Of a DNA stretch of 64,000 nucleotides, positions 1,477-19,594 are shown in pieces (the first letter of the stretch is position 1; each line of letters opens with the position of its first letter). The notes below the pieces were generated by a model. The model saw only the letters and a list, made by a program, of their open reading frames with translations. It did not search any database and was not told the origin of the DNA. This DNA comes from Bacteroidota bacterium (GTDB lineage Bacteria > Bacteroidota > Bacteroidia > Bacteroidales > CAIXZF01). A program made the translations under genes and the position numbers. Location of the stretch: the NCBI GenBank assembly GCA_022709385.1, contig JAKLIX010000008.1:90654-154653 (forward strand), given 5' to 3'.

Positions 1477-2132
1477 ACCTGAATTGAAGAGTTTTTCTTT
1501 AAGAAGAGTACGCTATATACTGACTTCGAGGGCAAGGAAATTTTATCACTTTAGCGGTTAACATAAAAACATGAGACCATAGGATCTTCAAAATTCCCGT
1601 GAAAAGGGTTCAAAAATTGGCATCGTTAACTCCCAAAACGCCGATTTTCCCTCCGAAAAACCCGATTTTTGACCCTCCAGGAAATCGATTATTTGTCAAA
1701 TAGCTGATTTTGTGCCTTTTAAACTTCTGGCCCTTTGTTGTCAGAAAATTTGTCTCAGACAAAACGCCGACCCGCTCTGCGGAATCAATGCAATTGCCTT
1801 GCTCCAAAAAACGGATATATGACGGGGCGAAATTCTAACCAATATGCCATAATACACATAATCAACCATATAGATCAAGCCTGATGATCCTCTTAGAACC
1901 AGAAAAACATCAAACCAGCCAGATTCTAACCATTTAGCGGTGTCACCGAATCGGGGCGGATTTTGCTTTTCAAAGGATCGTATTCTTCAACCTTCTCTCC
2001 CGCTCACTCCAACCAGTTTACCGTTTCATCCGATATGGAACCAGAACCAGCAACTTTGGCTTCACTTTCAACCTCTGCCAGGTAGCCCCGAATATGAGCA
2101 TCTTTTCAAGAACCTTGTTCACTCAAAATCAA

Positions 2133-2151
2133 TGTTCATTGACAATGAACA
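2133..2151. promoter_or_regulatory. 19-bp perfect palindrome TGTTCATTG-A-CAATGAACA, candidate operator
   Basis: Read directly from the sequence. Extra TGTTCA/TGAACA half-sites lie at 2116-2121 and 2163-2168. It sits about 85 nt upstream of a TAnnTTTG box and about 120 nt upstream of the ATG at 2270. Confidence 0.35.
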
Positions 2152-2236
2152 GAGGGTAAAAATGAACAAAATAATGAGAATTTGTTATATTTTGTGATTT
2201 TTTCTCATTTTTTGATTGTTTTTAATAATTTTTTAT

Positions 2237-2244
2237 TATATTTG
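2237..2244 (+). promoter_or_regulatory. Bacteroidota-type -7 promoter box (TATATTTG, consensus TAnnTTTG)
   Basis: Matches the Bacteroides sigma-A -7 consensus. It lies 26 nt upstream of the ATG at 2270 in a very AT-rich leader. Confidence 0.4.
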
Positions 2245-2269
2245 CGAATATTTCACAATATTATAAGCC

Positions 2270-3562: not shown

Positions 3563-4248
3563 AAATTGACAACGCTGTATTGAAACGGCATCAAGCCAGG
3601 CAGACAGAAAGGAAACTTGATGTCCGGGCAAAAAGGACCTACTATGTCATTGTTTGTGAAGGTGAAAAGACCGAGCCGAATTACTTTGAAGGCCTGAAAA
3701 AAGCGCTGCCGCCCGGGGTATTACAGACCTGCCAGATCGACATCCACGGCATTGGTGATAATACCCTTTCACTTGTCAGGAAAGCAAAAAAAATAAAAAA
3801 GTCTATAGAAGAGGATTCCGGCAGAGTGGTTGACAAATTATGGGTGGTGTTCGACAGGGACAGCTTTACCCCGGAATCCTTCAATAACGCCATCCTTAGC
3901 TGTCAGCATTCACGACCGAAGATCCATTGTGCCTGGTCAAACGAAGCTTTTGAACTTTGGTATTTGCTTCATTTCCATTTCTTTAACACAGCGATCAGCC
4001 GGGGTGACTATAAAAGCCTTATCGAAAAAGCCTTGCGGCCACATTTAGGCAAAGCCTACCGTTACCGTAAAAACAGCGAGGAAATGTATTCAATCCTGGA
4101 GAAATATGGCAATCAGGAGCAGGCTATTCAATGGGCCGGGAACCTGGTCAATCAACACGCCGGGAATAAGAATTTTGCGACACATAACCCCTGTACCATG
4201 ATTTATCAATTGGTTGAGGAACTCATCGTAATGCAAAAAACCAAGTAA
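3547..4248 (+). CDS. RloB-family (Toprim/OLD-like) protein (AbiLii-like)
   Basis: The hallmark RloB N-terminal motif 'YYVIVCEGEKTEPNYF' is at nt 3655-3687, with 'VVFDRD' further downstream. The gene is translationally coupled to the upstream ATPase. Confidence 0.85.
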   Translation: MAGKVKIDNAVLKRHQARQTERKLDVRAKRTYYVIVCEGEKTEPNYFEGLKKALPPGVLQTCQIDIHGIGDNTLSLVRKAKKIKKSIEEDSGRVVDKLWVVFDRDSFTPESFNNAILSCQHSRPKIHCAWSNEAFELWYLLHFHFFNTAISRGDYKSLIEKALRPHLGKAYRYRKNSEEMYSILEKYGNQEQAIQWAGNLVNQHAGNKNFATHNPCTMIYQLVEELIVMQKTK

Positions 4249-4395
4249 TGATATATCTGCAAGGCTTTACGGCAACATAGCCAACGGAATATGGTTTGTG
4301 TCAAATTTCTTTATACATTAGGCTAAGAAATCGAACCTCATGCTCCGATAAGATATCCTTCACAAAATCTGCACTTTAACTAATAGAATATATTT

Positions 4396-7300
4396 ATGAA
4401 GTCCCTCTCCCAACAACTCACAGTCCGCCCGTCTGTTTTTGACAAAAACCGAAGAGATGTGGTGCTCGACATTACCAACCTTATTGCTGGTCAGGTCGAT
4501 CCCGATGACTTTTTTAAAGAAAACTACATCACCAGGGGAATGCAGGATTTATACAGGGCAGTCTTTAAAAGACTTGAAGGCAACTCTGATGACGGATTGT
4601 TCCGACTCACTCAATCCATGGGAGGAGGCAAGACGCATAACATGATTGCCATAGGACTGCTGGCAAAATTTCCTGAATACCGTGAAAAGGTTATGGGTCA
4701 TATTTACAACACCACGCTGAAAGGCGGGGTCAATGTGATAGGATTCAGTGGAAGGGAAAAACCCGAGCTGGGAATCTGGGGCTACCTGGCAGAACAGCTG
4801 GGTAAAAAGGACATTTTTAAGAAGCGCTATGCTCCCCTGGAAGCTCCCGGACAGGAGGAATGGGAAGCCCTGCTTGCCAATGAGAAGCTGGTAATCATAC
4901 TGGATGAGTTGCCTCCTTACCTGGAAGGGGCCTATGGTAAAACTATCGGGGATTCAAACCTGGCCACAATTACCACCCAAGCCCTGAGTAACCTCTTTGT
5001 GGCCCTGGGGAAAAAGGAACTCAAGCAAGTAGTTGTCATTATCTCCGACCTGACTGCCAATTGGACACAGGGAAGTGAACTTATCGGTCAGATCGTTAAA
5101 AATCTGGAGGATGAAACCCACCGCGGGGCCAAACCCTTTACTCCTGTGGAGCAAACCGGTGATGAGATTTACAATATACTCAGGACCAGGATTTTTGACA
5201 ATCAGCCCAGCACTGAAGAGATTGAACCCATCGCCCTGGCATACGCTGCAATGATCAAGGAAGCCAAACAGATGGACATTACCACTGAAACTCCCGAACG
5301 CTTTGCCCAGGCAGTCAAAGACTCCTACCCTTTTCATCCTGCCATTAAAGACCTTTTCGCCCGCTTCAAGGAAAATCCGGGATTCCAGCAAACCCGTGGC
5401 CTGATCCGCTTAATGAGGACGATCGTATCCAGGATGTTTGATCCGGAAGAGGGCTGGGCAGGCAACAGTTACCTTATTGCTCCGTATGATCTTGATTTCA
5501 ATGATTCAGACACCCTGACTGAAATCGCCGGCATTAATTCTAAACTTACCAATGCCATCTCGCATGATATTTATGGAAACCCTTCTGCCGTAGCACAGAT
5601 ACTCGATGAGAAGTTTGATAACTCCCTGGCTTCTGATGCGGCCAAACTCATCCTTGTGTCTTCTCTGTCCGTGGTACAAAACGCCGTCAGGGGGCTTCAT
5701 GACTGGGAAATAATCCGCAACCTCTGCAAGCCGGGTGTTGAAATTTCGAAAGTAGCAGCAGAAATTCTGCCCGAACTCAAGAATACTTCCTGGTACCTTC
5801 ATATTGACAATACAGGGAAATTCCTTTACAAGGATGTCCAGAACGTCGTTGCCAAACTCAATGATTATATCAAAGGGTACAACCAGGAAAGCATCAAACT
5901 GGAAATCAAAGCCAAGCTACAAAGGATCTTCGAGCCAAAACTGAAGGATTGTTATCAAAAGGTATATGCATTACCAGCTCTCGACGAAATCGAGCCGGAA
6001 CAGTTTAAAACATCGCTCATTATCTATCAACCTTTTGCAGGCTCTGAGCTGCACCCCGACCTTGAAACTTTATTCAAAGATACCCAATGGCAGAACAGGG
6101 TTCTGTTTTTGACCGGCGATGCCCATTCTATGGCTTCTATTTTTGAGAATGCGGCAGGTCTGAAAGCCATTGATGCCATCCTGGGAGAATTTCGTTCAGA
6201 GAAGGTTCAACCCAATGATCCTCAGTTTATTGAAGCGGAAAAACTCAAAGAAACCTTCCTCTTCAAATTCAACAGTGCTGTCCGGGAAACTTTCGTCAAG
6301 ATATTCTACCCGACGAAAAACGGTCTCATGCCGGCAAATTTCCAGATGCAATTCAAGGATAATAATTTCGACGGCGAGGATCAGATCAAAAAGACACTGG
6401 TTGACAAAAGGAAATTCACAGAAGATATAAACTCTGATACCTTCCAGAAATATGTGGAAGGTAAATTATTCCACCCGCAGAAGACCCTGCCATGGAATGA
6501 GATCAAGAAAAAAGCAGCCACCAATACCGACTGGATCTGGCATAAGATGAATGCCCTGGACCAGTTGAAAGATGAATTAATCCTGAAAGATCTCTGGAGG
6601 GCCAACGGTGACTGGATTGAGATCGGTCCCTTTGAACCACCTAAAACCAGTGTGACTTACAGGATCATGAGCAGAAATGATGATACCGGCGAGGTTGCCC
6701 TGAAAATCATCCCCTCTCATGGTGACCGGGTACATTTTGAGATTGGTGACAAAGTTTCCACTGCCTCTCAGCAACTTGACCTGGCCCTACCCTTTAAGAC
6801 TTCCGAACTTAAAGCCACCTTCCTGTGTACCGACAGCAAAAATGTACACGAAACGGGTGACCCGCTGACGTTTAACAATACCATTACCCTTAAACACCGG
6901 TTTTTCCAGGATGATGACCGTCTGATGCTGGAATTGAAAGCAGCTCCGAAAGCTGACATCAGGTTCACGACCAACGGAAGTGACCCTTCCAATTCCGGAA
7001 AGCACTATGAAGGACCGGTGGCCATCCCCACTGGCGTCAGTTTCATTATTGCACTGGCGGAAAAGGATGGTATCAAGTCGGAGAAGAAGGAATACAAAGT
7101 CCCGGCAAGGGACCAGGGACCCTATGAGCCGATTAAAACAAAACCGGCCATCCTGAAAAGAAAGATCACCCGGCAGAGTACTTCAGAAACTTACGAATGG
7201 CTGAAGATGGTTAGCAAACACCGGATCATTCTGTCCGGGGTGACCTTTTCGATAAACGGGAAAAAATGGGCCAGCATTGATGTTTACCCTGAAATGCAGT

Positions 7301-7470
7301 TCGATCATGACAAGTTGAACACAGTACTGAGTTTCCTGAGGAATGAAATCCTCAACGAAGGAGAAATTGAACTATCGGCCCAGCAACTGCATTTTGAAAC
7401 AGGCCAGCTGTTATTGGATTATATCAGGGATACAAGAGACCAGTTAAAACCGAATGAAGTCGAACAATAA
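4396..7470 (+). CDS. DUF499-type P-loop ATPase (1024 aa)
   Basis: P-loop 'SMGGGKTHN' at nt 4621-4635 and Walker B-like 'VIILDELPPY'. The N-terminal layout and large size are typical of DUF499 proteins. It is the first gene of an overlapping gene chain. Confidence 0.8.
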   Translation: MKSLSQQLTVRPSVFDKNRRDVVLDITNLIAGQVDPDDFFKENYITRGMQDLYRAVFKRLEGNSDDGLFRLTQSMGGGKTHNMIAIGLLAKFPEYREKVMGHIYNTTLKGGVNVIGFSGREKPELGIWGYLAEQLGKKDIFKKRYAPLEAPGQEEWEALLANEKLVIILDELPPYLEGAYGKTIGDSNLATITTQALSNLFVALGKKELKQVVVIISDLTANWTQGSELIGQIVKNLEDETHRGAKPFTPVEQTGDEIYNILRTRIFDNQPSTEEIEPIALAYAAMIKEAKQMDITTETPERFAQAVKDSYPFHPAIKDLFARFKENPGFQQTRGLIRLMRTIVSRMFDPEEGWAGNSYLIAPYDLDFNDSDTLTEIAGINSKLTNAISHDIYGNPSAVAQILDEKFDNSLASDAAKLILVSSLSVVQNAVRGLHDWEIIRNLCKPGVEISKVAAEILPELKNTSWYLHIDNTGKFLYKDVQNVVAKLNDYIKGYNQESIKLEIKAKLQRIFEPKLKDCYQKVYALPALDEIEPEQFKTSLIIYQPFAGSELHPDLETLFKDTQWQNRVLFLTGDAHSMASIFENAAGLKAIDAILGEFRSEKVQPNDPQFIEAEKLKETFLFKFNSAVRETFVKIFYPTKNGLMPANFQMQFKDNNFDGEDQIKKTLVDKRKFTEDINSDTFQKYVEGKLFHPQKTLPWNEIKKKAATNTDWIWHKMNALDQLKDELILKDLWRANGDWIEIGPFEPPKTSVTYRIMSRNDDTGEVALKIIPSHGDRVHFEIGDKVSTASQQLDLALPFKTSELKATFLCTDSKNVHETGDPLTFNNTITLKHRFFQDDDRLMLELKAAPKADIRFTTNGSDPSNSGKHYEGPVAIPTGVSFIIALAEKDGIKSEKKEYKVPARDQGPYEPIKTKPAILKRKITRQSTSETYEWLKMVSKHRIILSGVTFSINGKKWASIDVYPEMQFDHDKLNTVLSFLRNEILNEGEIELSAQQLHFETGQLLLDYIRDTRDQLKPNEVEQ

Positions 7471-8086
7471 AAAAGGCCCCGTTCTTGACTTTGGTTTTAA
7501 CCCAAAGGACACGGAACATCATTTCCTGGTTTACATCAAACCCGGAGACAAAGAAGTGTATTTCTTTGAACAATTCTCCTTCACCGAGGATCAGGACTTT
7601 AGTGTACTCGCCTATACCATCAGCGGTCAGGGATCCACCTGCAAGTGCCTTCTGAATCATTCAAGATGGGATTTGATAAAAGCGGATGTAAGGGCCGAGT
7701 TCAACCGCAGGTTGAAAGAAATGGAGATCCCTTCATCCCAGTGGAAATCGAAGTACAACTATCTTCACCGCCTGCTGGGGAAAGAACTCCTGGTGCTGGC
7801 CTGGGCCATAGAGGAGGCAGATCCGGCCACCGTACCCCTGGCCATCCAAAACTGGCTTGGTTTAAAACCGGAAGAGCGCTGGTGGCTGTATACCATTACC
7901 AATGCTGCCACCGGGCATGCCATTAACGGCCGGGGCAAGGGATGGCGCAAGGCTTTACGCTTTGCCCTGACTGAAAACCCCGTCACACACGAGAAAATTG
8001 ACATGAACATCTACAAAGAATCCAATATTCTCAGCCTTTTTAAGGAAGACCCGGATTCTGAAACCCTCGGAAGCAAACATGAATAA
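7454..8086 (+). CDS. small protein in the DUF3780 position of DUF499/DUF1156 loci (DUF3780-like)
   Basis: The ORF is 210 aa. It overlaps the upstream gene by 17 nt and the downstream gene by 8 nt. The family call rests mainly on size and position, so the coding call is firmer than the family call. Confidence 0.6.
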   Translation: MKSNNKKGPVLDFGFNPKDTEHHFLVYIKPGDKEVYFFEQFSFTEDQDFSVLAYTISGQGSTCKCLLNHSRWDLIKADVRAEFNRRLKEMEIPSSQWKSKYNYLHRLLGKELLVLAWAIEEADPATVPLAIQNWLGLKPEERWWLYTITNAATGHAINGRGKGWRKALRFALTENPVTHEKIDMNIYKESNILSLFKEDPDSETLGSKHE

Positions 8087-10964
8087 ATCCTTCATAGAAA
8101 CCCAGTTCCCGGTTTCCAAAATATCAAAAGAGAGTTATAAAGAAAGAAAGGCCGGAGCCAGCCAGACGCTCACAGGACTGGGAAAATGGTGGGGACGAAA
8201 ACCCCTGGTGCTTGTACGTGCAACTATTCTGGGCCTCTTGATGCCATCTTCCGAAGACCCCAAAAAGGACAGGGAAATCTTCCTCAAACTGCTTACCATG
8301 GATGAAGAGGGTTTGCTCAGTAGAAAAGACAAAACCCTCTCTGCAAAGGAGTTGTTCCTTCATTCCCCGCAAAGCCTCAGAATCAGATATTTTGATCCTT
8401 CCTCCACAGTAGAAAAGGTAATCTGGCGAGATAACATCGGCAAAGAGGATACGGATGAACTTCAGGATAAGGTGTTTAAGGCTTTGAGCTATGACGACAA
8501 ACTGAAGTATTGCCTGAGGCCGGAGCATCTGGAAGGTCCTTCATCAGATACATGGGAAGAAATCAATGCCCATCTGAATACCTCAGCCCACTCCCTGCAA
8601 GAACTGGTCAACGAGCTGGGAATCCGGATTTTTGGTCACACACCAAGAATCGGGGATGCCTTCTGCGGCGGGGGATCCATACCTTTTGAAGCAGCCCGCC
8701 TGGGTTGTGACGTTTACGCCAGTGACCTGAACCCGGCTGCTGCACTGCTTACCTGGGCTTCCCTGAATATCATCGGCGGCGGCGAAAAAGTCCAGAAAGA
8801 AGTGCGTGAAGCTCAGGAAGAAGCCTTCCGGCTTGCCGACGGACAGATCACCGAATTGGGCATCGAACACAATGACAAGGGCTGGAGAGCTGATGCCTAC
8901 CTCTATTGCATAGAAGCAAGAAGCCCGAACAGCGGCTATTGGGTGCCACTTGCCCCGAGTTGGATCATATCAGAAAAATACAAGGTTTGTGCAGTTTTAC
9001 GGCCCGACCATGCCAATAAACGCTACCATATTGATATAGTTACTGATGCCGACAGTCAAACGTTCGCGAAGGCCAAACAGGGAACCATCCGGAATGGCGA
9101 ACTCATATGCCCGGAAGATCCCACAAAATCTTATGACATTTCCACCATCCGGGGTGACCGGAGAATGGATGGGGAAACCCGTTACGGTTTGAGACAATGG
9201 GAAAACGAAGATATAGTCCCTCGGCCCGAAGATGTCTTCCAGGAAAGGCTTTATTGCGTAAGGTACATAGGTCCTGATGGAAATCGCTATTATGTGGCAC
9301 CCGGCCCACGGGAATGGCAAAATGAAGAAAAGGTCCTTAATCTCATCCAAGAGAGATTTGAGGAATGGCAAGAGAAAGGATATATTCCCAGCTCGCTGAT
9401 TCCAGAAGGTGATAAAACAGAAGAACCAAAAAGAACCCGTGGTTGGACCCATTGGCATCATCTCTTTAATCCGAGGCAGTTGATTTACCATGGGCTTTTC
9501 ATGCAAAGCCTGATGGGAAAAGGCAACAATGAAAGACATCAAAAAGTCGGTGGCTGCATTTCTATTGGGGCTGCAATTGACAACCAATCAAGATTATGCG
9601 GATGGAATCCACATTTTTCAAAAGGCCCAGGTACCACAAGGAATGTATTTTTCAATCAGGCTTTGAACACACAGTATTATTATGGCACAAGAAGTTTTGG
9701 AGGAGTCCTCGATTTTTACCTCTCGGATCTACCGTATGAAAAAAAACTCACCCCTGAAATAAAAGTAGTGACATCTGATGCCCGGGAGAATCAGGACACT
9801 AATGAATTTTGGATCACTGACCCGCCCTATGCTGATGCAATCAATTATCATGAGCTTGGTGATTTCTTTTTAAGCTGGTATGAAAAGCATATAGGGAATA
9901 CTTTCCCAGAATGGTATTCGGAATCAAAAGCAGCATTAGCTGTCAAGGGGACGGGAAGTTCCTTTAACCAGAGTATGGTAGATTGCTACCAGAATTTCAC
10001 CCGGCATATGCCTGACAATGGTGCCCAGGTGGTCATGTTCACCCACCAGGACAGTCGGGTCTGGGCCGACCTGGCATTAATTTTATGGGCCTCGGGCCTC
10101 CAGGTCACAGCCGCCTGGACTATACAAACCGAGACCGATTCTGTAGGGATAAAATCAGGTAATTATGTGCAGGGTACCGTAATTATGGTCCTCAGGAAAC
10201 AGCAGACCAGCAATATTGCTTTTTTAAGCGACATCCAGGCGGATGTGGAATATGAGGTCAAGCAGGAACTCCGGAGCATGCTGGCCCTGGATGACCGGGA
10301 TGATCCCAATTTCGGGGATACGGATTACCAGCTTGCAGCCTATGTGGCTGCCTTGCGGGTAATTACGAGGTATAAAAAGATAGAAGACATTGATGTTCAC
10401 TACGAATTGAGCAGGGAAAGGCAGGCCGGGGAGGTCAGTGAGATCCAGGAGATCATCAAAAGTGCCGTGAAGGTTGCCTGTGAATACCTGGTACCCGGTG
10501 GCTTTGACGCTTCCGTGTGGAGACAACTCAGCGGCGAAGAACGCTTTTATCTCAAGGGCCTTGAAATCCAAAGCCATGGGGAATACCGGAATGGTGTATT
10601 CCAGGAACTTGCCCGTGGGTTCGGCCTGAGGGATTACAAACTGTTTCTGCAAACAGGTTCGGCCAATGAAACCCGGCTGGCCTCAGCTGTAGAGTTTAAC
10701 AATAAGGAGCTTCAAACCGAGGGATTCGGCAGTACGCTGGTCAGGCATGTTTTATTCGCCGTCAGGGAAACGCACAAGAACCAGTCTGCACGTTCCGGCC
10801 GGCAGTGGCTGTACAACGAGTTGCCCGATTATTGGGGGAGCCGCCTGCGGATCATCCATATTCTGGCCTACCTGCAAAGACTGGGCATCTATCTGGACAA
10901 CTGGCAGGATGATGTTTATGCAGCCCGGCTGTTGCAGGGCTATCTTGAAAATGATACGATATGA
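8079..10964 (+). CDS. DUF1156-domain DNA amino-methyltransferase (N6-adenine or N4-cytosine class)
   Basis: N-terminal DUF1156 signature 'ETQFPVSKISKESYKER...LTGLGKWWGRKPLVLVRA'. SAM motif I 'DAFCGGGSIPFEAARLG' starts at nt 8655. Catalytic motif IV 'DPPY' is at nt 9819-9830. Confidence 0.88.
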   Translation: MNKSFIETQFPVSKISKESYKERKAGASQTLTGLGKWWGRKPLVLVRATILGLLMPSSEDPKKDREIFLKLLTMDEEGLLSRKDKTLSAKELFLHSPQSLRIRYFDPSSTVEKVIWRDNIGKEDTDELQDKVFKALSYDDKLKYCLRPEHLEGPSSDTWEEINAHLNTSAHSLQELVNELGIRIFGHTPRIGDAFCGGGSIPFEAARLGCDVYASDLNPAAALLTWASLNIIGGGEKVQKEVREAQEEAFRLADGQITELGIEHNDKGWRADAYLYCIEARSPNSGYWVPLAPSWIISEKYKVCAVLRPDHANKRYHIDIVTDADSQTFAKAKQGTIRNGELICPEDPTKSYDISTIRGDRRMDGETRYGLRQWENEDIVPRPEDVFQERLYCVRYIGPDGNRYYVAPGPREWQNEEKVLNLIQERFEEWQEKGYIPSSLIPEGDKTEEPKRTRGWTHWHHLFNPRQLIYHGLFMQSLMGKGNNERHQKVGGCISIGAAIDNQSRLCGWNPHFSKGPGTTRNVFFNQALNTQYYYGTRSFGGVLDFYLSDLPYEKKLTPEIKVVTSDARENQDTNEFWITDPPYADAINYHELGDFFLSWYEKHIGNTFPEWYSESKAALAVKGTGSSFNQSMVDCYQNFTRHMPDNGAQVVMFTHQDSRVWADLALILWASGLQVTAAWTIQTETDSVGIKSGNYVQGTVIMVLRKQQTSNIAFLSDIQADVEYEVKQELRSMLALDDRDDPNFGDTDYQLAAYVAALRVITRYKKIEDIDVHYELSRERQAGEVSEIQEIIKSAVKVACEYLVPGGFDASVWRQLSGEERFYLKGLEIQSHGEYRNGVFQELARGFGLRDYKLFLQTGSANETRLASAVEFNNKELQTEGFGSTLVRHVLFAVRETHKNQSARSGRQWLYNELPDYWGSRLRIIHILAYLQRLGIYLDNWQDDVYAARLLQGYLENDTI

Positions 10965-12649
10965 CAGAAGCTCAGATTAGAACATATCTTTCTCAAGGCG
11001 AGGGACTCAGAATTGAATTCAAAAAATCAAGGCTGGCCTTACCTGGCAACTTGTTTGAGAGTGTTTGCTCATTTCTGAACCATAGTGGAGGGACAATCTT
11101 GCTTGGCGTTGATAATGATGGCAGCTTTGAAGGTGTAGATAGAACTACGCTTGACAAACTGATGGACAACGTTGCAACCCTATCCAATAATCCTGAATTT
11201 CTTGACCCGCCGTTCCTCCTGTTCCCGATCAAACATGAAATTGACGGGGAGAATATTATTGTTATTCAAGTCCCGGAAAGCTCACAAGTACACAAGTTTA
11301 AAGGTATAGTTTTTGACAGAAGCAGGGACGGGGATTTTAAAGTGATTAAGCCTGAAAGAATCGCTGAAATTGCAAACCGGAAAAGAAACCTGTTTACTGA
11401 AGGCAGAATATTGCCTTTCCTTGAATATAAACATTTCAGGGAAGACCTGTTTGAAAAAGCCAGGGCACTGATTCGTTCAAGAAAACCAGATCATCCATGG
11501 CTTTTGTTTGATAACCCGACATTACTCGAAAAAGCGGGCCTTTATAAAACTGACCTTCAGACCGGCGAAGTGGGCTATACCCTTGCTGCTTTGTTATTGT
11601 TTGGAAGAAATGAATTCATTGAAAGCACACTTCCGGCGCTAAAAATTGATGCACTTGTCAGAATAGAAAATACTGATCGCTATGACGACCGGGATGAAAT
11701 CAGGCATACTAACCTGATAGAAGCATATGAAAGGTTAATGGCGTTTGTCGGCAAACACCTCCCGGATAAGTTCCACCTGGAAAACGGGCAAAATGTAAGT
11801 TTAAGGGACATTATCTTCAGGGAAGTTATTGCAAATATCCTGGTGCACAGGGAATATACCCATGCGATGCCAACCACATTTGTCATTTATCAGGATAGGG
11901 TTGAAACTCTCAATCCGAATAATCCACATTTCCATGGGTTAATTCTACCCGAAAAAGTGGTTCCCTTCCCTAAGAATCCTGCCATATCAAAATTCTTTAT
12001 TCAATTGGGCAGGGTTGAAGAATTAGGATCAGGGGTTATGAATGTCAGTAAGTACCTACCCCATTACACCCAGGGTGCATTACCACAGTTTATTGAAAAT
12101 GATGTATTTACGACGATTATACCGCTTAAGGTGCACACACTTGGGGCGTTAGCAAAGGAATTTTTGAGGGCCATTCTGCCCGGGCACATACAAGCAGAAG
12201 AGGTGCTTACATTGCTTACAAGTCTCCAGATCACATCAGAAATTGCAAAAGAAGCCCACGATCCTGGCCTGTTGTTTTATCGATTGGGAGTATGCTGGAT
12301 GGAAAAAGGGCTTAAGCTGCTTAGAGATAAAGATCATGATATCAGCAAACTAACAAAAGAAGAAGAAATAAAGGGACTAAGCTGGGAGGAAAAAGGGACT
12401 AAGCTGATCGAAAAAGGACTGTTAAACATGGTTCAGATTCTGATACTATGTTTAAGGGAAAAAAGTTTACAGGAACTGGCTGATATCACGGGGTATTCAA
12501 ACAGATCGAAATATAAATCCTCCTATATTGACCCGTTAGTTAACTATAGGTTAATAGAATTAACCATTCCGGACAAACCAAAGTCCCCTGCCCAAAAATA
12601 TAAAACAACCGTTGCAGGAAGGTATTTCCTTGGAGGTGGACAAATTTAA
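10961..12649 (+). CDS. Schlafen/AlbA_2 (divergent AAA_4) + HATPase_c_4-like + C-terminal wHTH protein
   Basis: N-terminal 'YLSQGEGLRIEFKKS...ESVCSFLNHSGGTILLGVDNDG' is typical of AlbA_2. Mid-protein 'REVIANILVHREY' is the HATPase-like part. C-terminal 'PDKPKSPAQKYKTTVAGRYFL' is a typical wHTH tail. The start overlaps the methylase stop (ATGA). Confidence 0.8.
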   Translation: MTEAQIRTYLSQGEGLRIEFKKSRLALPGNLFESVCSFLNHSGGTILLGVDNDGSFEGVDRTTLDKLMDNVATLSNNPEFLDPPFLLFPIKHEIDGENIIVIQVPESSQVHKFKGIVFDRSRDGDFKVIKPERIAEIANRKRNLFTEGRILPFLEYKHFREDLFEKARALIRSRKPDHPWLLFDNPTLLEKAGLYKTDLQTGEVGYTLAALLLFGRNEFIESTLPALKIDALVRIENTDRYDDRDEIRHTNLIEAYERLMAFVGKHLPDKFHLENGQNVSLRDIIFREVIANILVHREYTHAMPTTFVIYQDRVETLNPNNPHFHGLILPEKVVPFPKNPAISKFFIQLGRVEELGSGVMNVSKYLPHYTQGALPQFIENDVFTTIIPLKVHTLGALAKEFLRAILPGHIQAEEVLTLLTSLQITSEIAKEAHDPGLLFYRLGVCWMEKGLKLLRDKDHDISKLTKEEEIKGLSWEEKGTKLIEKGLLNMVQILILCLREKSLQELADITGYSNRSKYKSSYIDPLVNYRLIELTIPDKPKSPAQKYKTTVAGRYFLGGGQI

Positions 12650-12660
12650 ATGACTCATTA

Positions 12661-15378
12661 ATGATCAACCGATATTCTTCAAGGACACTGCCGCTGGATG
12701 AGAGCTTATTAAATGCTAGGCTTCTCAATGCGAAATCTTATGACCGGGTGGCTGGGTACTTCAGCTCTTCTATCCTTGAAATTGCCGGTGAATCCATCAA
12801 CTCCATTCAAGGGACCGTCAGGATCATCTGTAATTCCGAGATGGAGGAAGCAGATGTGGTCACGGCACGGGCTGCGGAAATGTCGATGAAACGGGAATGG
12901 TGCAACAGTATAGACACCAGGCTGAATTACACCGGAACCGACCGGTTTTCAAAACTATACTCCTTACTTACCTCCAATAAAATTGAAGTGAGGGTTCTGC
13001 CCTCCACTACTTTCGGGCTGATTCACGGGAAAATAGGCGTTGTCACAGGATCTGACGGAAAAAAGATGGCTTTTATCGGCAGCACCAATGAAACTTATGC
13101 TGCCTGGCGGATGAACTACGAGGTTGTTTGGGAAGACGATTCCCCGGAGGCAGTGGAATGGGCACAATCAGAATTTGATGCGTTGTGGCAGCATCCTCAT
13201 GTTACCCGATTATCTGATTTTATTATACAGGACATCGGCAGGATCGCAAAAAGAAAGATCATAAACCTGGATTCCTGGCAGGCCATTAAGCAACCGGCCA
13301 GTGTCGTAGTGGAGAGCCCTGTTTACAGATCCGAATACGGTTTATGGGCACACCAGAAGTATTTTGTAAAAAAGGCTTTTGACGATCATCTTTCAGGAAA
13401 GGGAGCCCGTTACTTATTAGCCGACCAGGTTGGACTTGGAAAGACCGTTCAACTTGCCTTATCGGCTCAACTCATGGCCCTGACCGGAAGCAAGCCGGTA
13501 CTGATTATTGTACCCCGCACCCTGCTATTTCAATGGCAGGATGAAATGAATAATCTCCTTGCCATGCCATCAGCTGTTTGGGACGGCAAACAATGGAATG
13601 ATGAGAACGGGGTAAAATATCCTTCAATCGGACCGGAATCCATCAGCAAATGTCCGCGCCGCGTTGGTATTGTAAGCCAGGGATTGATTACCCGGAAAAG
13701 CGAAGCTGCCTCCGCCCTTTTGAATATTGAATATGAATGTATTATCCTGGATGAATGTCACCGGGCCAGGAGAAAGAACCTAAAGGCAGATGCAGAGAAT
13801 GAACCTGTCAATCCGAACAACCTGTTGGCATTCTTATTCAAAATTGCTTCGCAAACGAAGAACCTTCTCATAGCCACGGCAACGCCTGTACAGTTATTTC
13901 CCATTGAGGCGTATGATTTGCTCGATGCCCTCAGCCGAAGCAATGACCACGTACTTGGTAACGTATTTTCCCTCTGGAAGAAAGACAAAAAACTTATCCT
14001 CGATCTGGTAACGGAGAAACAGGATCCTCCAATGAGCTTCAGTTCAATGTGGGAATGGGTAAGGAATCCTTTTCCGGCTACATCAGAAAATGACCAGTTA
14101 TTTGGCTCAATCCGTCGTAGATTGAATATGTCAGATAAAGACGCTGTCGTTGAAGGAAACAGGGAAATCGAAATGAAACCGGCCGATAAAAACAAGATTG
14201 AACGGCTGGGTAAGGAATTCTTCACTCTGTACAACCCCTTTATCAGGCATATTGTGAGAAGGACAAGGGAATTTCTGGAAAATGAAAACGATCCTTCGAC
14301 CGGTGAACCCTACCTGAAAAAGGTTGAAGTTACCCTCTTTGGTGAGGATAGCAAAGACGCTATCCTCTTACCAGGCTACCTGAGAGATGCCTACGAATCA
14401 GCGGAAGAGTTTTGCAGACTTCTTGGAGAACGAATGAAATCGGCGGGATTTATGAAGACCATGCTTCTCAGGCGGATGGGAAGTTCCCTCGAAGCCGGCA
14501 AAAATACAACCATGAAGATCCTTGGGAACTTGTCAGAGGAAATCTTCCAGGAAGAAGATGATAATGAATCAAGTGAAGAGGAAAATATGGTGCTGGAACA
14601 GGAGGTTTCTTCCCTCACGGCATCCCTGACCAATAAGGAAAAAGAAGTCCTTCAATTATTGCTCAGGCAATTAGAAAAACACCAGGATAAAGATCCTAAA
14701 TACTTCAAGATCAAAGAATTCTTGTTCGACCGGGGCTGGATGGAGTCGGGTTGTATCCTGTTTTCTCAATATTTCGACACCTGCTGGTATATGGCAAACC
14801 AGCTTTCATCTGAACTGAAAGACATTTCAATCGGCGTGTATGCAGGGGGGAATAAATCAGGACTGCTGATTAAAGGCATATTTACGCCCTACACCCGGGA
14901 AGACTTGAAAAAGATGGTCCAGGCAGGCAAGATCAGACTCCTGTTCGGAACAGATGCTGCAAGTGAAGGTTTAAACTTACAGAAACTCGGAACATTGATC
15001 AATATTGACCTTCCCTGGAACCCAACCCGTCTGGAACAACGCAAGGGCCGGATTCAACGCATCGGACAAATCAGGGATAAAGTGCTTATTTACAACATGC
15101 GCTATAAAGACTCCATTGAAGACAAGGTGCATGGGATACTATCGAGCCGGTTAAAGAAGATCTACGATATGTTCGGGCAATTACCAGATGTGCTGGAGGA
15201 TGTTTGGATTGAGGCAGCACAGGGGCATATCGAGAAGGCCAACGAGATCATTGATGCCATCCCCAACCAGCATCCGTTTGAGATGAAATACAACAAAGTC
15301 GAGCAAATCGACTGGGAGAGCTGCTCGGAGGTTTTGAATGAGGTGGAGAGAAGAGAAATACTAAATAAATCCTGGTAA
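12661..15378 (+). CDS. PLD-family (HKD) nuclease domain fused to an SNF2-type helicase
   Basis: N-terminal 'GLIHGKIGVV...FIGSTNET' (H-x-K ... G-S-x-N) at nt 13024-13095. SNF2 motif I 'DQVGLGKT' at nt 13432-13446. Motif II 'LDECH' at nt 13750-13761. Motif VI 'EQRKGRIQRIGQ'. Confidence 0.88.
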   Translation: MINRYSSRTLPLDESLLNARLLNAKSYDRVAGYFSSSILEIAGESINSIQGTVRIICNSEMEEADVVTARAAEMSMKREWCNSIDTRLNYTGTDRFSKLYSLLTSNKIEVRVLPSTTFGLIHGKIGVVTGSDGKKMAFIGSTNETYAAWRMNYEVVWEDDSPEAVEWAQSEFDALWQHPHVTRLSDFIIQDIGRIAKRKIINLDSWQAIKQPASVVVESPVYRSEYGLWAHQKYFVKKAFDDHLSGKGARYLLADQVGLGKTVQLALSAQLMALTGSKPVLIIVPRTLLFQWQDEMNNLLAMPSAVWDGKQWNDENGVKYPSIGPESISKCPRRVGIVSQGLITRKSEAASALLNIEYECIILDECHRARRKNLKADAENEPVNPNNLLAFLFKIASQTKNLLIATATPVQLFPIEAYDLLDALSRSNDHVLGNVFSLWKKDKKLILDLVTEKQDPPMSFSSMWEWVRNPFPATSENDQLFGSIRRRLNMSDKDAVVEGNREIEMKPADKNKIERLGKEFFTLYNPFIRHIVRRTREFLENENDPSTGEPYLKKVEVTLFGEDSKDAILLPGYLRDAYESAEEFCRLLGERMKSAGFMKTMLLRRMGSSLEAGKNTTMKILGNLSEEIFQEEDDNESSEEENMVLEQEVSSLTASLTNKEKEVLQLLLRQLEKHQDKDPKYFKIKEFLFDRGWMESGCILFSQYFDTCWYMANQLSSELKDISIGVYAGGNKSGLLIKGIFTPYTREDLKKMVQAGKIRLLFGTDAASEGLNLQKLGTLINIDLPWNPTRLEQRKGRIQRIGQIRDKVLIYNMRYKDSIEDKVHGILSSRLKKIYDMFGQLPDVLEDVWIEAAQGHIEKANEIIDAIPNQHPFEMKYNKVEQIDWESCSEVLNEVERREILNKSW

Positions 15379-15418
15379 ATAATAATTTTAAGTAAACATC
15401 ATCACAAAATACATCATT

Positions 15419-16366
15419 ATGAGCAAGATAATATTTATGAGAATTGCCTGGATGAAATTCTATAAGGGGAATACCAAGCAAGATAAACCTATAGGTGCAG
15501 GAGCATATGTTCAAGAAAATGAAGATGGCGGTGAAGTTTGCAATTTCCTTGATATAAATGGCTTGTGCTATGGATATGCAAGAATGCCCCCAGGCAGGAA
15601 TATTGATATTAAGCGAGAAGGAGCCAGCCCATTTGACACATCAGTAAATGATGTAGATGTAATCTTTATTGCGACAAATCCGAAAGATGGTGGTCAGTAT
15701 ATTGTTGGATTTTACAATAATGCTATTGTTTATAAGAAACCTCAAACAATAAAAAACAAGAAACGTGGAAACCACAATAACTATGTTTGCTTATGTCCTT
15801 CAAAATCAGCATTTCTTGTATCTGAAAAAGATAGGGTATATGATATCACCGGTGCTGGGCAAGCTAATATCTGGCATGCCAGTGAGTACTTAACTAACAC
15901 TGAGTTACGAAGATTGACAACTTATCTTCTCAAAGTTAAAGGATCATTGCAAACGGCACGTAAATCTTCAGGTAGCTTTAATTCGAATATAAAAGCTAAC
16001 GCTGAAGCTGAGATGAAGGCGATGGAGTATGTAAAGCAATATTTCGAAAGCAATGAATTTAAGGTAATAGATATTCACAAGGATAATTTAGGTTGGGATT
16101 TTACTGCTATCAAAAATACAGTTGAGTACCAACTCGAGGTCAAAGGATTGTCTGGGAACTTCACCTCAATTGATCTGACACCCAATGAATTTGATAAGAT
16201 GGAAAACAAAAAATCAACCTATCTAGTTTGTATTGTTTCAAATCTTGGAACCGGGGAGGCACCAAAATTGGATTTAATTTCCTATTATGGTAGTACTCTC
16301 AAATCGGACAGTGGCATCGAAATGAAGATTACTAAAATTATTGGTGCAAGAATTTCAAGAAAATAA
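15419..16366 (+). CDS. two-domain protein: unknown N-terminal domain + DUF3883-type (restriction-endonuclease-fold) C-terminal domain
   Basis: C-terminal 'EAEMKAMEYVKQYF...GWDFTAI...YQLEVKGLSG...IDLTPNEF...YLVCIV' fits the DUF3883/NOV_C nuclease-fold pattern. I do not recognise the first ~190 aa. The gene is very AT-rich. Confidence 0.65.
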   Translation: MSKIIFMRIAWMKFYKGNTKQDKPIGAGAYVQENEDGGEVCNFLDINGLCYGYARMPPGRNIDIKREGASPFDTSVNDVDVIFIATNPKDGGQYIVGFYNNAIVYKKPQTIKNKKRGNHNNYVCLCPSKSAFLVSEKDRVYDITGAGQANIWHASEYLTNTELRRLTTYLLKVKGSLQTARKSSGSFNSNIKANAEAEMKAMEYVKQYFESNEFKVIDIHKDNLGWDFTAIKNTVEYQLEVKGLSGNFTSIDLTPNEFDKMENKKSTYLVCIVSNLGTGEAPKLDLISYYGSTLKSDSGIEMKITKIIGARISRK

Positions 16367-16389
16367 TCATATCAATTTCAAGGACTTTT

Positions 16390-18351
16390 ATGAAAATTTC
16401 AACTGTACTTGACCATATCGATAATGGGCACATGGCCCTCCCGGAATTTCAACGAGGATATGTTTGGAACCGGGAACAGGTCAGAGGCCTCTTCGACTCA
16501 CTTTATAGACGACATCCAATCGGTGGCTTACTTGTGTGGGCAACTGAATCACAAAGTGCTGAACACAGAGGGGATGGAGAGCTGGCAGCTGGTATTGTAA
16601 AATTACTGCTCGATGGTCAACAGCGGATGACTACATTATATGGGGTTATAAGGGGAAAAGCACCAAAGTTCTTTGATGGAAATGCAGCAACTTTCACAGG
16701 ACTTTTCTTTCATCTTGAAAATGAAATATTTGAATTTTATCAACCTTTGAAGATGAAGGATGATAAGTTGTGGATAGATGTCACGCAATTGATGAAAAAA
16801 GGAGATGAAGGCCTGGGCGAAATAATTGCAAGATTGTCCCAACAAGCGGAATTTGTTGCAAAAACAGGTGAGCATGTTGGAAAGTTAGCTAAGTTACTTG
16901 GTATAAGGGAAGTAGATCTTCATGTTGAAGAAGTGACCGGATCGGACAAAACCATTGATATAGTGGTAGAAATTTTTAATAGAGTTAACAGCGGTGGAAC
17001 AAAATTATCGAAAGGAGATCTGGCTCTTGCCAAGATTTGTGCAGAGTGGCCGGATGCCCGGGAGAAAATGAAAGAGAAATTAAAAGTTTGGGAGAACATT
17101 GGTTATCACTTTAGTCTGGATTGGCTATTGCGTTCTGTTAATACAGTTATCACAGGTGAAGCTAAGTTCCTGTACCTGCATGATAAAAATCCAGCAGAGG
17201 TGCAAAATGGATTAGAAAGAGCAGGTAGGCACCTGGATTCATGCCTGAATATGATCAGTGGAAGACTCGGTTTGGATCACGACCAGGTATTGTTCAGCCG
17301 GTATTCTTTGCCAGTCATGGTGCGGTATCTTGACAAACGAAATGGCCTGCTTGATGCAAAAGAAAGAGATAAACTGCTATTCTGGTTTGTTCAGGCAGGA
17401 ATGTGGGGGCGATTTTCGGGTTCGACTGAATCAATAATCGACAAGGATCTGGAAGTTCTAGAATATGGTGATAACATGCTGGATAATTTATTGGAGAATT
17501 TGCGGATGTGGCACTCCGGATTAAGAATTGAACCGTATCATTTCACCGGTTGGAGCTTGGGTGCGAGGTTTTATCCGGTTTTGTATATGCTCACCAGGAT
17601 GGGAGAAGCAAGGGACTGGGGGAATGGACTTCCGCTAAAAGCACATCTTCACGGTAAAATGAGCAAACTGGAAGTTCATCACATTTTTCCTAAAGCAAAG
17701 CTTTACAAACATAACAATACTGGTTACAAACGACCCGAGGTAAACGCTTTAGCAAACTATTGTTTCCTGACTAAAGAGACCAATCTACTAATTAGTGATA
17801 GATTTCCTGAAGAATATTTCCCGGAAATTGAGCAGAACCACCCAGGAGCTCTTGCCTCTCAATGGATCCCACAAGACCCAAATCTTTGGAAAACAGATAA
17901 CTACCTTGAATTCCTTGAAGCACGGAAAATCCTGATTGCAAATGAAGCCAATAGACAAATGGAAGATCTTCTTCATGGTGAATTACATTGGATGGATACA
18001 TCCGCCCCAGCAATTTCATTAACTGAGACCATTGGTGGTGGAATAACGACTGAGAAAGAAGAAGAAGAACTAAATGAAGTCAATAATTGGATCGCTGCAT
18101 TAGGATTGCCTCGCGGCACTTTACTTTTCGAATATTATGATCCTATGGGAAATCAATTGAAGGCAGTTTTTGATCTGGCCTGGCCTTCAGGATTACAGGA
18201 AGAACTTAGTCAACCAGTTGCAATACTACTGAATGAAAACGATGAACTTGTAAAATTTGCCCTCGAATCCGGTTATAAGTGCTTCACTAACATTTCAGAT
18301 TTCAAGCGATATATCAACAGTGACATTCTTGTCATGGAAATTGAATTGTAA
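16390..18351 (+). CDS. GmrSD-family protein (DUF262 N-terminal + DUF1524 HNH-like C-terminal), type IV restriction-like
   Basis: DUF262 motifs 'LPEFQRGYVW' (nt 16441-16467) and 'DGQQR' (nt 16612-16626). DUF1524 His-Me motif 'LEVHHIFPK...NALANYCFLTKETN' starts near nt 17671. About 150 extra C-terminal residues follow. Confidence 0.85.
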   Translation: MKISTVLDHIDNGHMALPEFQRGYVWNREQVRGLFDSLYRRHPIGGLLVWATESQSAEHRGDGELAAGIVKLLLDGQQRMTTLYGVIRGKAPKFFDGNAATFTGLFFHLENEIFEFYQPLKMKDDKLWIDVTQLMKKGDEGLGEIIARLSQQAEFVAKTGEHVGKLAKLLGIREVDLHVEEVTGSDKTIDIVVEIFNRVNSGGTKLSKGDLALAKICAEWPDAREKMKEKLKVWENIGYHFSLDWLLRSVNTVITGEAKFLYLHDKNPAEVQNGLERAGRHLDSCLNMISGRLGLDHDQVLFSRYSLPVMVRYLDKRNGLLDAKERDKLLFWFVQAGMWGRFSGSTESIIDKDLEVLEYGDNMLDNLLENLRMWHSGLRIEPYHFTGWSLGARFYPVLYMLTRMGEARDWGNGLPLKAHLHGKMSKLEVHHIFPKAKLYKHNNTGYKRPEVNALANYCFLTKETNLLISDRFPEEYFPEIEQNHPGALASQWIPQDPNLWKTDNYLEFLEARKILIANEANRQMEDLLHGELHWMDTSAPAISLTETIGGGITTEKEEEELNEVNNWIAALGLPRGTLLFEYYDPMGNQLKAVFDLAWPSGLQEELSQPVAILLNENDELVKFALESGYKCFTNISDFKRYINSDILVMEIEL

Positions 18352-18393
18352 TTATGGGTCACATATTGCCATCAAAGGTCTTTTCGTGAATAG

Positions 18394-18627
18394 ATCCACG
18401 CTGCCTACCAAAGCCAGTGGTCACGCTATGCTGCATTCGACGCAAACATCCCCGGCATCAACCCTGATTACCATACCTCCGTCCGGAAAGATGTTCTTGA
18501 AGAAATTGACGGACCCATGCTCAAATACGGCATATAATCACTGGATAAACAAAGGATCATTCTTCCAGGGAGAAAAGCCGACTGGCCGGATAGAAACCGC
18601 CTGAAACCAGGTTCTCAGAATTCCTGA
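18394..18627 (+). pseudogene. possible start-less gene remnant with one in-frame stop
   Basis: This frame reads protein-like: 'IHAAYQSQWSRYAAFDANIPGINPDYHTSVRKDVLEEIDGPMLKYGI*SLDKQRIILPGRKADWPDRNRLKPGSQNS*'. It has no start codon and an in-frame TAA at 18535. It lies between the last island gene and tRNA-Val. I do not recognise the family. Confidence 0.25.
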
Positions 18628-18664
18628 ATAGAATATAACTCACACCCTCACTCTCACCCGCTTG

Positions 18665-18739
18665 TGGGTTGTACTGGACTCGAACCAGTGGCCCCCGCCC
18701 TGTCAAGGCGATGCTCTGAACCAACTGAGCTAACAACCC
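18665..18739 (-). tRNA. tRNA-Val (anticodon GAC)
   Basis: The reverse complement folds as a cloverleaf. Acceptor stem is GGGTTGT/ACAACCC, the D-arm is GCTC..GAGC, the anticodon loop is TTGACAG, the T-arm is ACTGG-TTCGAGT-CCAGT, and the discriminator is A. Confidence 0.9.
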
Positions 18740-18810
18740 CTATTTTAATTTCCAATTAGCAACACGCTCACGCTCAATCTCGCTCTCACTCTCACTCTCA
18801 CTCTGTTTCT

Positions 18811-18865
18811 CCCCCGCCCTGTCATCCCGCACGTGCGGGACTGAACCAACTGAGCTAACAACCCC
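18811..18865 (-). pseudogene. truncated tRNA-Val-like fragment with a 16-nt palindromic replacement
   Basis: It keeps the tRNA 5' acceptor strand, the D-arm 5' half, and the anticodon-loop/3' stem segment. 10 nt of the tRNA (AGCATCGCCT) are replaced by TCCCGCACGTGCGGGA (nt 18825-18840). The T-arm and 3' acceptor strand are missing. Confidence 0.7.
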
Positions 18866-18929
18866 TATTTTAATTTCCAATTAGCAACACGCTCACGCTC
18901 GCTCTCACTCTCGCTCTCACTCTGCTTCC

Positions 18930-18984
18930 CCCCCGCCCTGTCATCCCGCACGTGCGGGACTGAACCAACTGAGCTAACAACCCC
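18930..18984 (-). pseudogene. second truncated tRNA-Val-like fragment, same structure
   Basis: Nearly identical to 18811-18865. The palindrome is at nt 18944-18959. Confidence 0.7.
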
Positions 18985-19195
18985 TTATTTTAACCTCCCC
19001 GCTGCCAACTTCCCGTCTCAGTGCTGCAAAATTAATATTAAAATTTGAATTTCAAAACAGCAGCAGATTACATTCGGTTCGCATGCTTCTCACCCGCCTA
19101 CGGCTTCGTGCAAACAAGATTCCTTGCCTGCAATATCCCGTTTCCACGCTGCCATGGAAGGTCGTATCTTTAAGCCTTCATTCAATCAAAATGCC

Positions 19196-19594
19196 ATGGA
19201 AAAACAAAACAAAATCCCGATGCTGTACGGCTATGCCGTATGCCTGACGGCAGTGATCACCCTGATCATCGCTGTCGCTTCCCTGGTCAACAGCCTGATC
19301 GACCGCCAGGCTCCCCTCTACGCCGAACGCGACTATCAGAAAACCGCCAGCCTGGCTTCCTTCGAAAACTACAAAGCGGATATCCTGAAAACAGGAGACA
19401 AGGAAAACACCCTGACCCTCGACGATGCCACCCTGAGGTCAATGTTCGAGGCGGCGCGCACAGAAAAGATACAGTCGGTCCTGCACCGCAGCAACCGCAC
19501 GATAATTACCAACGGCATCCTCATCGTCATCTGTCTTGCCTTGTTCTTTACTCACTGGAGCTGGATGGGGAAGATCAGGAAAACAACGGAATAG
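19196..19594 (+). CDS. small membrane protein (two predicted TM helices), function unknown
   Basis: Hydrophobic segments 'LYGYAVCLTAVITLIIAVASLV' and 'IITNGILIVICLALFF'. I chose the internal ATG at 19196 over the non-ATG start at 19124; the start remains uncertain. Confidence 0.5.
   Translation: MEKQNKIPMLYGYAVCLTAVITLIIAVASLVNSLIDRQAPLYAERDYQKTASLASFENYKADILKTGDKENTLTLDDATLRSMFEAARTEKIQSVLHRSNRTIITNGILIVICLALFFTHWSWMGKIRKTTE

Follow-up and report, generated by a model that had tools for sequence, protein, structure and literature searches.

A 64,000-nucleotide (nt) stretch of contig JAKLIX010000008.1 from a Bacteroidota bacterium, hereafter called the window, carries a long same-strand defence gene array, of which the last two genes encode a 315-amino-acid (aa) protein, ORF315, and a 653-aa GmrSD-like protein. 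Our reading, to which we assign a probability of about 0.6, is that each of these genes encodes a self-contained restriction nuclease of type IV character, independent of the other, and that the two were separately inserted at the 3' end of an Hma-like operon beside a tRNA-Val gene. Both genes are co-oriented with the PLD-SNF2 helicase gene that precedes them, with gaps of 40 nt between the helicase gene and ORF315 and 23 nt between ORF315 and GmrSD. Neither is a chance open reading frame (ORF), as homologs were obtained with E-values down to 1e-69 for ORF315 and 0.0 for GmrSD. The only novel element of the two genes is the N-terminal domain of ORF315 (N-domain), which is unnamed and widespread. 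The features of the two genes are as follows, with positions counted along the window:

15419..16366, + strand: ORF315 (315 aa), predicted two-domain restriction-type nuclease (ORF listing)
15419..15964, + strand: N-domain of ORF315, aa 1-182 (AlphaFold2 (AF2) model, conservation, profile search)
16007..16267, + strand: NOV_C/DUF3883 PD-(D/E)xK domain of ORF315, aa 197-283 (Pfam)
16010-16012, 16097-16099, 16136-16138 and 16142-16144, + strand: catalytic codons of ORF315 for E198, D227, E240 and K242, respectively
16390..18351, + strand: GmrSD-like (BrxU/HEC-05-type) single-protein type IV enzyme, 653 aa (Pfam, PADLOC, BrxU structure)
16612..16626, + strand: DGQQR motif of the DUF262 NTPase domain, GmrSD aa 75-79 (direct reading)
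17668..17784, + strand: His-Me finger-like region 'EVHHIFP...NALANY...FLTKETN', GmrSD aa 427-465 (direct reading)
17887..18348, + strand: acidic C-terminal region, GmrSD aa 500-653 (family-wide homolog coverage)

In Pfam searches the C-terminal half of ORF315 matched NOV_C/DUF3883 (PF13020) at aa 197-283 (E 1.8e-12; bit score 47.6, cutoff 22.1), and aa 1-190 had no match in Pfam, NCBIfam or PADLOC. This bears out the sequence-only reading of the protein as an unrecognised N-domain fused to a DUF3883-like C-terminus. The residues E198, D227, E240 and K242 (E240-x-K242), a full PD-(D/E)xK set, were invariant in an alignment of 62 family members, and the two-domain architecture was common to 66 full-length homologs. 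The full-length AF2 model was obtained with a predicted local distance difference test score (pLDDT) of 92. When subjected to Foldseek it matched archaeal Hjc resolvases, RecU, EcoRV/SwaI and the SPARDA nuclease (best nuclease match: E 3.3e-3, probability 1.0, target template modelling score (TM) 0.46-0.59), in keeping with a restriction-endonuclease-like alpha/beta fold of the NOV_C domain. PADLOC models matched only the C-terminal domain of ORF315, which aligned to the C-termini of HmaA and TmtA. NOV_C/DUF3883 has been described as the catalytic domain of the modification-dependent YenY4I and McaZI group (Lutz et al., 2019, PMC6765204) and as the essential nickase of HmaA (PMC11232893). The nuclease half has an isoelectric point (pI) of 5.9.

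The N-domain, which is basic (pI 9.2), was also modelled alone with AF2 from 64 sequences, yielding a compact, beta-rich structure with a long helix cap (pLDDT 92.3, predicted TM 0.89). Its core was conserved across all architectures (W11, M12, Y15, G17, D22, E39, N42, F43, G97-W98-Y99, R139, G147 and W152), a mix of aromatic and polar residues as would be expected for a ligand pocket. Q148, N150 and Y153 are further conserved residues of the domain. A profile built from 25 N-domains was searched against 1.84 billion representative proteins (50% identity clusters), which gave 2,652 matches at E ≤ 1e-3 and 2,030 at E ≤ 1e-10, and members come from bacterial, archaeal, plasmid and phage sequences. 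Beyond the lineage of the window, the nearest relative of ORF315 is 42% identical, compared with about 70% for GmrSD. In a Ruminococcus phage (NatCom_29429; L156, 2962-3939) the gene for a 325-aa N-domain protein is inserted in the tail module, behind or ahead of which lie the tape-measure gene and the other tail genes, and is oriented in reverse to them. This is a typical moron position, and the gene may represent a phage-borne defence or exclusion gene. In several N-domain+NOV_C proteins (P0087, P0089, P0099, P0103, P0106, P0123, P0146, P0153, P0171, P0196 and P0205) the N-domain is preceded by an extra 100-190 aa that have no Pfam match, which could be a further domain or result from mis-called start codons.

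The partners of the N-domain were surveyed with Pfam in 144 representative proteins. NOV_C was present in 83, HNH or HNH_2 in about 9, TPR repeats in about 6 and McrB-type AAA_5 in 2, and EVE, HSDR_N and DpnI_C were found once each, while short stand-alone forms made up about a quarter of the representatives. Fusions of the N-domain were seen to HNH_2 (L047, L053), to HNH (L060, L066), to an HSDR_N nuclease lying ahead of it (L045, P0097) and to EVE (L059). In P0162 the N-domain (aa 2-184) is followed by AAA_5 and McrB_lid with an NTADRS signature, by which this protein is judged to be a genuine McrB with the N-domain in the position of the specificity domain, and P0139 combines the N-domain with EVE, DUF8426 and AAA_5. 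Such a range of partners is what is usually seen for sensor modules of type IV restriction, and it fits exactly the principle stated by Bell et al. (PMC11090510) for the partner repertoire of type IV specificity domains. ORF315 itself consists of a separate specificity-like domain and a nuclease domain, both confidently modelled. The suggestion, made earlier from the sequence, that the N-domain is reader-like is thus favoured by the swapped partners, the basic pI, the McrB position and the tandem arrangement with EVE, but the fold matches described below were non-significant, and we infer this role rather than regard it as proven. A tentative proposal, to which we give slightly less than even odds, is that the N-domain (180 aa) founds an unnamed and widespread family of DNA-modification sensors, interchangeable with EVE, YTH, SRA, DUF3427 and ADAM and fused to NOV_C, HNH and Mrr/HSDR_N-type nucleases as well as to McrB GTPases.

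The 653-aa protein harbors GmrSD_N/DUF262 at aa 3-216 (Pfam, E 1.1e-27) and was matched by the PADLOC model HEC-05 (E 1.9e-45). A sequence search of the PDB returned the BrxU structure 7p9k (E 1.1e-12) with two stretches in the N-terminal 243 aa. Direct reading of aa 427-465 revealed residues of the His-Me type ('EVHHIFP...N452...N465'), and this region is presumed to be a DUF1524 His-Me finger nuclease. The earlier description of the gene as a DUF262/DUF1524 gene closely following ORF315 stood for the gap, the DUF262 domain, the DGQQR motif and the HNH-like motif, whereas DUF1524 was not reported by Pfam at E ≤ 0.01, leaving the nuclease half represented by its motif only. A total of 7,071 homologs were obtained at E ≤ 1e-10. 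The best 120 of these align at about 70% identity over 99-100% of the length, measure about 650 aa and span distant phyla, e.g. Planctomycetota and Alphaproteobacteria. The earlier proposal of an 'extended' GmrSD was therefore not supported, since this length, including the C-terminal stretch of about 150 aa, is the norm in a family that numbers over 7,000 proteins. This C-terminal region (aa 500-653) has a pI of 4.3 and is conserved throughout the family of ~650-aa proteins; for its 153 aa no Pfam match was obtained, and matches in the PDB were spurious only (a designed repeat protein, the LDL receptor and LysR). The immediate neighbours of GmrSD in 80 metagenome loci were mainly HsdS, found 19 times, and HsdR-type genes, found 14-15 times, indicating that the family is normally embedded in type I restriction-modification (R-M) systems, and in L068 the order HsdM-...-HsdS-GmrSD-HsdR was seen directly. 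HEC-05 is essentially BrxU, for which defence has been demonstrated experimentally with a single gene being sufficient, and the role of the DGQQR motif in the DUF262 NTPase domain has been described (Payne et al., 2024, bioRxiv 10.1101/2024.01.29.577857). Judged from its sequence, the 653-aa protein appears to be an ordinary member of a very large and very mobile BrxU/HEC-05-like GmrSD subfamily, and its gene adds nothing new beyond another case in which a defence gene has come to lie within an operon of the Hma-like or R-M type.

Both genes lie in region 1-18650 of the window, which is a tRNA-flanked defence island. The other features of this island are:

2270-4248, same strand as the array: AbiLi (AAA_21 ATPase)/AbiLii (RloB) pair, upstream of the Hma-like system
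4396..15378, + strand: Hma-like four-gene anti-phage system, whole (NCBIfam, PADLOC, Pfam)
4396-7470, + strand: DUF499 ATPase, Hma-like core gene
7454-8086, + strand: DUF3780 gene, Hma-like core gene
8079-10964, + strand: DUF1156 methyltransferase, Hma-like core gene
10961-12649, + strand: AlbA_2/HATPase_c_4/Fic-like_C protein (562 aa), gene embedded in the Hma-like system
12661-15378, + strand: PLD-SNF2 helicase, Hma-like core gene
18664..18739, - strand: tRNA-Val(GAC) (ARAGORN; Rfam tRNA, 65 bits)

All four Hma-like core proteins were matched over their full length by an NCBIfam anti-phage-associated set (NF042961-NF042964), the DUF1156 and PLD-helicase proteins above the curated cutoffs and the DUF499 and DUF3780 proteins below them. 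The core system also matched PDLC02189-02193 and the HmaA/B/C models of PADLOC. The 3' end of tRNA-Val(GAC) points toward the gene array, and the tRNA gene is likely the integration site and the right edge of the low-GC region. A scan of 15000-19200 for promoters and terminators performed no better than on shuffled sequence and is uninformative on co-transcription. AbiLi/AbiLii represents another known defence pair within the same island. The AlbA_2 (Schlafen-like) gene sits between the DUF1156 methyltransferase and the PLD-helicase genes and may be a third embedded defence gene; AlbA_2/HATPase_c_4 relatives adjoin GmrSD genes of the ~650-aa family in 3-5 of 80 metagenome loci. Beyond the tRNA gene, two extra units of about 119 nt were observed on the + strand (18769-18990), each repeating the upstream region and the 5' half of tRNA-Val. 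In each unit 10 nt (AGCATCGCCT) are swapped for a perfect 16-nt palindrome, TCCCGCACGTGCGGGA (18825-18840 and 18944-18959). These units have no T-arm, were not called as tRNA by ARAGORN or Rfam and are followed by (GAGAGY)n tracts.

The GC content of region 1-18650 is 44.3% and that of the remainder of the window 50.0%. ORF315 (GC 35.8%; GC at third codon positions (GC3) 31%) and GmrSD (41.2%; GC3 36%) lie well under the four core Hma-like genes (GC 46-49%; GC3 52-59%), and a low value was also obtained for the embedded AlbA_2 gene (41.1%; GC3 40%). For comparison, host DNA has about 50% GC and host genes a GC3 of about 60%. Given their low GC3, ORF315, GmrSD and AlbA_2 therefore appear to have entered the core system at a later time, which agrees with the earlier proposal that the two genes were acquired separately from the rest of the island. 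The single 60-nt lines counted by hand for that proposal were exact (31.7% at 15661-15720, 61.7% at 8641-8700 and 63.3% at 35521-35580). The contrast they implied was overstated, because these lines lie near the 1st-5th and 95th percentiles among all 60-nt lines of the window, and the true difference in GC is smaller.

The genomic context of ORF315 relatives was analyzed in 66 genome loci, corresponding to 42 lineages at 70% identity. The upstream genes varied and included type III Res/Mod, type I HsdR/HsdS, SWI2/SNF2, BrxL, AbiH and a UvrD helicase. Within two genes upstream, helicase-type families were the most common (ResIII in 13 of 92 proteins, DEAD in 7, SWI2_SNF2 in 6). Plasmid-borne members adjoin Hachiman-like genes (DUF1837 and a helicase), an AAA ATPase with DUF4435, transposases and integrases. 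The neighbour census revealed no conserved methyltransferase partner, and N6_N4_Mtase was found near ORF315 relatives only in the type III R-M group, which is a single mobile lineage. Because a solitary nuclease without a methyltransferase partner must spare host DNA, modification dependence would be the simplest route to do so. Proteins of the ORF315 family with 97.5-100% identity were encountered across Clostridia, Bacilli, Erysipelotrichia, Campylobacteraceae and a metagenome-assembled genome of the candidate phyla radiation (Nanosyncoccaceae), where they sit behind a type III Res or type I HsdR gene (L008, L009, L011, L013, L014, L016, L018-L022 and L034, most of them with the match lying near 10001-10969). 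Such a distribution points to a mobile element in recent spread, or possibly to contamination across genome bins.

Several observations weigh against two independent, modification-dependent nucleases and are considered here together with the explanations they favour. The tight co-orientation of the helicase, ORF315 and GmrSD genes leaves room for local co-expression or cooperation within this lineage, as does a second locus (L067) in which the pair recurs. In the sequence-only reading it was suggested that ORF315 and GmrSD may act together as a type IV module of two genes, to which ORF315 would contribute a reader or second nuclease, and the shared strand, the 23-nt gap, the low GC3 of both genes and the retention of the pair in L067 are in line with this idea. 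However, a DUF262 gene was detected within 10 kb of ORF315 relatives (by tblastn, Pfam and iterative hidden Markov model search) in only 2 of the 66 loci (L002 and L030); both genes belong to another GmrSD subfamily, and the L030 copy runs on the other strand. In the converse comparison, 80 loci with a 66-71% identical GmrSD, of which 61 extend over 1 kb upstream, contained no ORF315 relative. L067, the only locus with the pair, shares 89% DNA identity with window positions 15953-18305 and represents the same lineage; there, a shared tRNA sequence of 77 nt adjoins an integrase gene. Each family has its own typical contexts, and BrxU/HEC-05 works as a single gene (Payne et al., 2024). The two genes are thus not a conserved pair, and the module idea, largely refuted by co-occurrence, a criterion that the sequence-only reading had itself named, is very improbable. 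The frequent position of ORF315 relatives directly after a helicase or translocase gene could likewise mean a functional coupling. In that case ORF315 would serve, as accessory nuclease or as specificity subunit, the upstream translocase, which is the PLD-SNF2 helicase in the window and a type III Res, type I HsdR, SWI2/SNF2 or UvrD-like protein elsewhere, mirroring the helicase-NOV_C fusion of HmaA. Apart from the helicase types dominating the nearest upstream genes, such a coupling is consistent with an ORF315 relative lying 17 nt after a UvrD helicase gene on a Hymenobacter plasmid, with the match of the ORF315 NOV_C to the HmaA C-terminus (E 1.9e-8) while the Hma-like helicase of the window has no NOV_C, with the direct fusion of the N-domain to the McrB translocase in some proteins, and with the NTPase coupling proposed for DUF3427-DUF3883 enzymes (Lutz et al., 2019). 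Yet the helicase partners come from unrelated families, nine of the helicase-adjacent loci are the single 97.5-100% identical mobile lineage, many loci have no helicase neighbour, and neither DUF499 nor DUF1156 genes were found in any of the 66 loci. Moreover, the placement is equally expected when a gene is added to an R-M operon on its 3' side, because restriction subunits normally come last in these operons and such a gene follows the helicase by default. We therefore consider a translocase-coupled ORF315 to be quite doubtful.

Further points against modification-dependent nucleases concern the N-domain. When the N-domain model was compared with the PDB, no Foldseek match below E 1e-3 was obtained. 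The top match was the EVE domain of THYN1 bound to 5-methylcytosine DNA (E 0.059, probability 0.54, TM 0.37-0.39), and the next ranks were nearly all YTH domains, the EVE proteins PH1033, 2EVE, 1ZCE and 2G2X, the EVE-HNH enzyme VcaM4I and the YTH-like TgMcrB-N (T. gammatolerans), at E 0.06-1. With E of at least 0.06 and TM not exceeding 0.39 in these comparisons, the N-domain has no significant match to any known reader superfamily. An hhalign comparison of its profile with an EVE alignment gave a probability of 0.1-0.2%; this alignment was built from a homolog search that gave 3 proteins, and was also enlarged with 2GBS and 2EVE and validated against them. The N-domain profile found no PDB sequence, and the full-length profile found no relevant one. 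A relaxed Pfam scan detected YTH in 1 of 25 N-domain members (E 8e-4), which did not recur among the 25 most-matched Pfam families listed for 144 further members. Membership in the PUA superfamily (EVE/YTH/ASCH) is thus not backed by Pfam, hhalign or PDB profile searches. A PUA/EVE/SRA-like fold, for which the earlier reading had proposed to look, is hinted at by the Foldseek ranking, headed by EVE and YTH domains, and not by TM values (all below 0.4) or profiles, so that a PUA-like fold is a lead from modelling and not a result. In addition, the TPR fusions and stand-alone forms would fit a protein-binding or other role. These data could be explained if the N-domain, instead of reading modified bases, responds to a phage protein or to the structure of DNA, or has enzymatic activity of its own, and ORF315 acts as an infection-triggered effector nuclease of the abortive-infection type. 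In that case the conserved D22, E39, N42, R139, Q148 and N150 could be catalytic as easily as binding residues, and the NOV_C nickase of HmaA also acts in an Abi-like manner (PMC11232893). On the other hand, the N-domain is basic, its sub-threshold fold matches are consistently EVE/YTH readers and not enzymes, and its partners are those of a classic type IV specificity domain, with several nuclease classes, the McrB N-terminus, a tandem EVE and DpnI_C (principle in PMC11090510). An infection-triggered effector is therefore unlikely.

For two independent type IV-kind nucleases, the following mechanism is proposed. The N-domain of ORF315 most likely binds DNA and would recognise something that host DNA lacks, most probably a base modification, whereupon the NOV_C domain would nick or cut the bound DNA. 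In GmrSD, the DUF262 NTPase with its DGQQR motif would drive the His-Me finger nuclease against DNA with modified bases, as in BrxU. Complementarity of BREX and BrxU has been demonstrated (cited in Payne et al., 2024). A comparable complementarity with the upstream Hma-like system is what we infer for the window: because that system would mark host DNA by methylation and presumably attack unmarked DNA, ORF315 and GmrSD would cover phages that escape by DNA modification. The locus as a whole would thereby act on invading DNA with or without modification.

In type IV restriction enzymes, "reader" and "cutter" modules are combined interchangeably, and new reader families have proved useful for phage-modification biology and as epigenetic tools (MspJI, AbaSI and the EVE-HNH enzymes). 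The N-domain is common, well folded in prediction, absent from Pfam, NCBIfam and PADLOC, and placed in the positions taken by known readers. Should it prove to bind a particular modified base, the N-domain would represent a new reader class and provide a function for thousands of proteins annotated as "DUF3883 domain-containing" or "hypothetical". It might then have its own modification specificity and yield a new modification-dependent restriction enzyme or reader tool.

Among known systems, ORF315 resembles the YenY4I/McaZI group in that N-terminal sensors are followed by a C-terminal DUF3883/NOV_C domain, neither a helicase nor a cognate methyltransferase is part of the system, and the gene is located in a defence island. 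The sensors of YenY4I and McaZI, however, are a true EVE-type PUA domain and/or DUF3427, and the N-domain of ORF315 matches neither in Pfam. The NOV_C of ORF315 is homologous to HmaA positions 1024-1131 (PADLOC, E 1.9e-8), and ORF315 adjoins an Hma-like DUF499/DUF1156/helicase system. In contrast to HmaA, which comprises a SNF2 helicase and a C-terminal NOV_C nickase, ORF315 has no helicase, and the helicase of the window has an N-terminal PLD nuclease in place of the C-terminal NOV_C. Given that ORF315 has no helicase and that the loci of its family are devoid of DUF499/DUF1156, it was not assigned as the HmaA component of an Hma system, and a NOV_C nuclease detached from an Hma-like system was rejected as a general account on the same absence from all 66 loci. 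The END-nuclease family, with an inactive EndoIII as sensor, has an architecture unrelated to that of ORF315.

The 653-aa protein is similar to BrxU/HEC-05 in that DUF262, including DGQQR, is joined through a helical linker to a His-Me finger motif, in which 'EVHHIFP' corresponds to 'DHIYP' of BrxU and 'EHICP' of HEC-06 (motifs from Payne et al., 2024). It differs from BrxU as a member of a distinct, highly conserved subfamily of ~650-aa proteins whose last 150 aa or so form an acidic region, and the similarity between the two was detected in the N-terminal 240 aa only. With respect to McrB, whose specificity domains include ADAM/DUF3578, the YTH-like TgMcrB-N and EVE, the N-domain takes the same position in P0162, and together with EVE in P0139. 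In the window, by contrast, it is fused straight to a nuclease and not to a GTPase, and McrBC genes are absent. The EVE-HNH enzymes VcaM4I and TspA15I are likewise two-domain proteins of a reader and a nuclease, and the N-domain is also found fused to HNH; since it occurs together with a separate true EVE in some proteins, it belongs to a different family.

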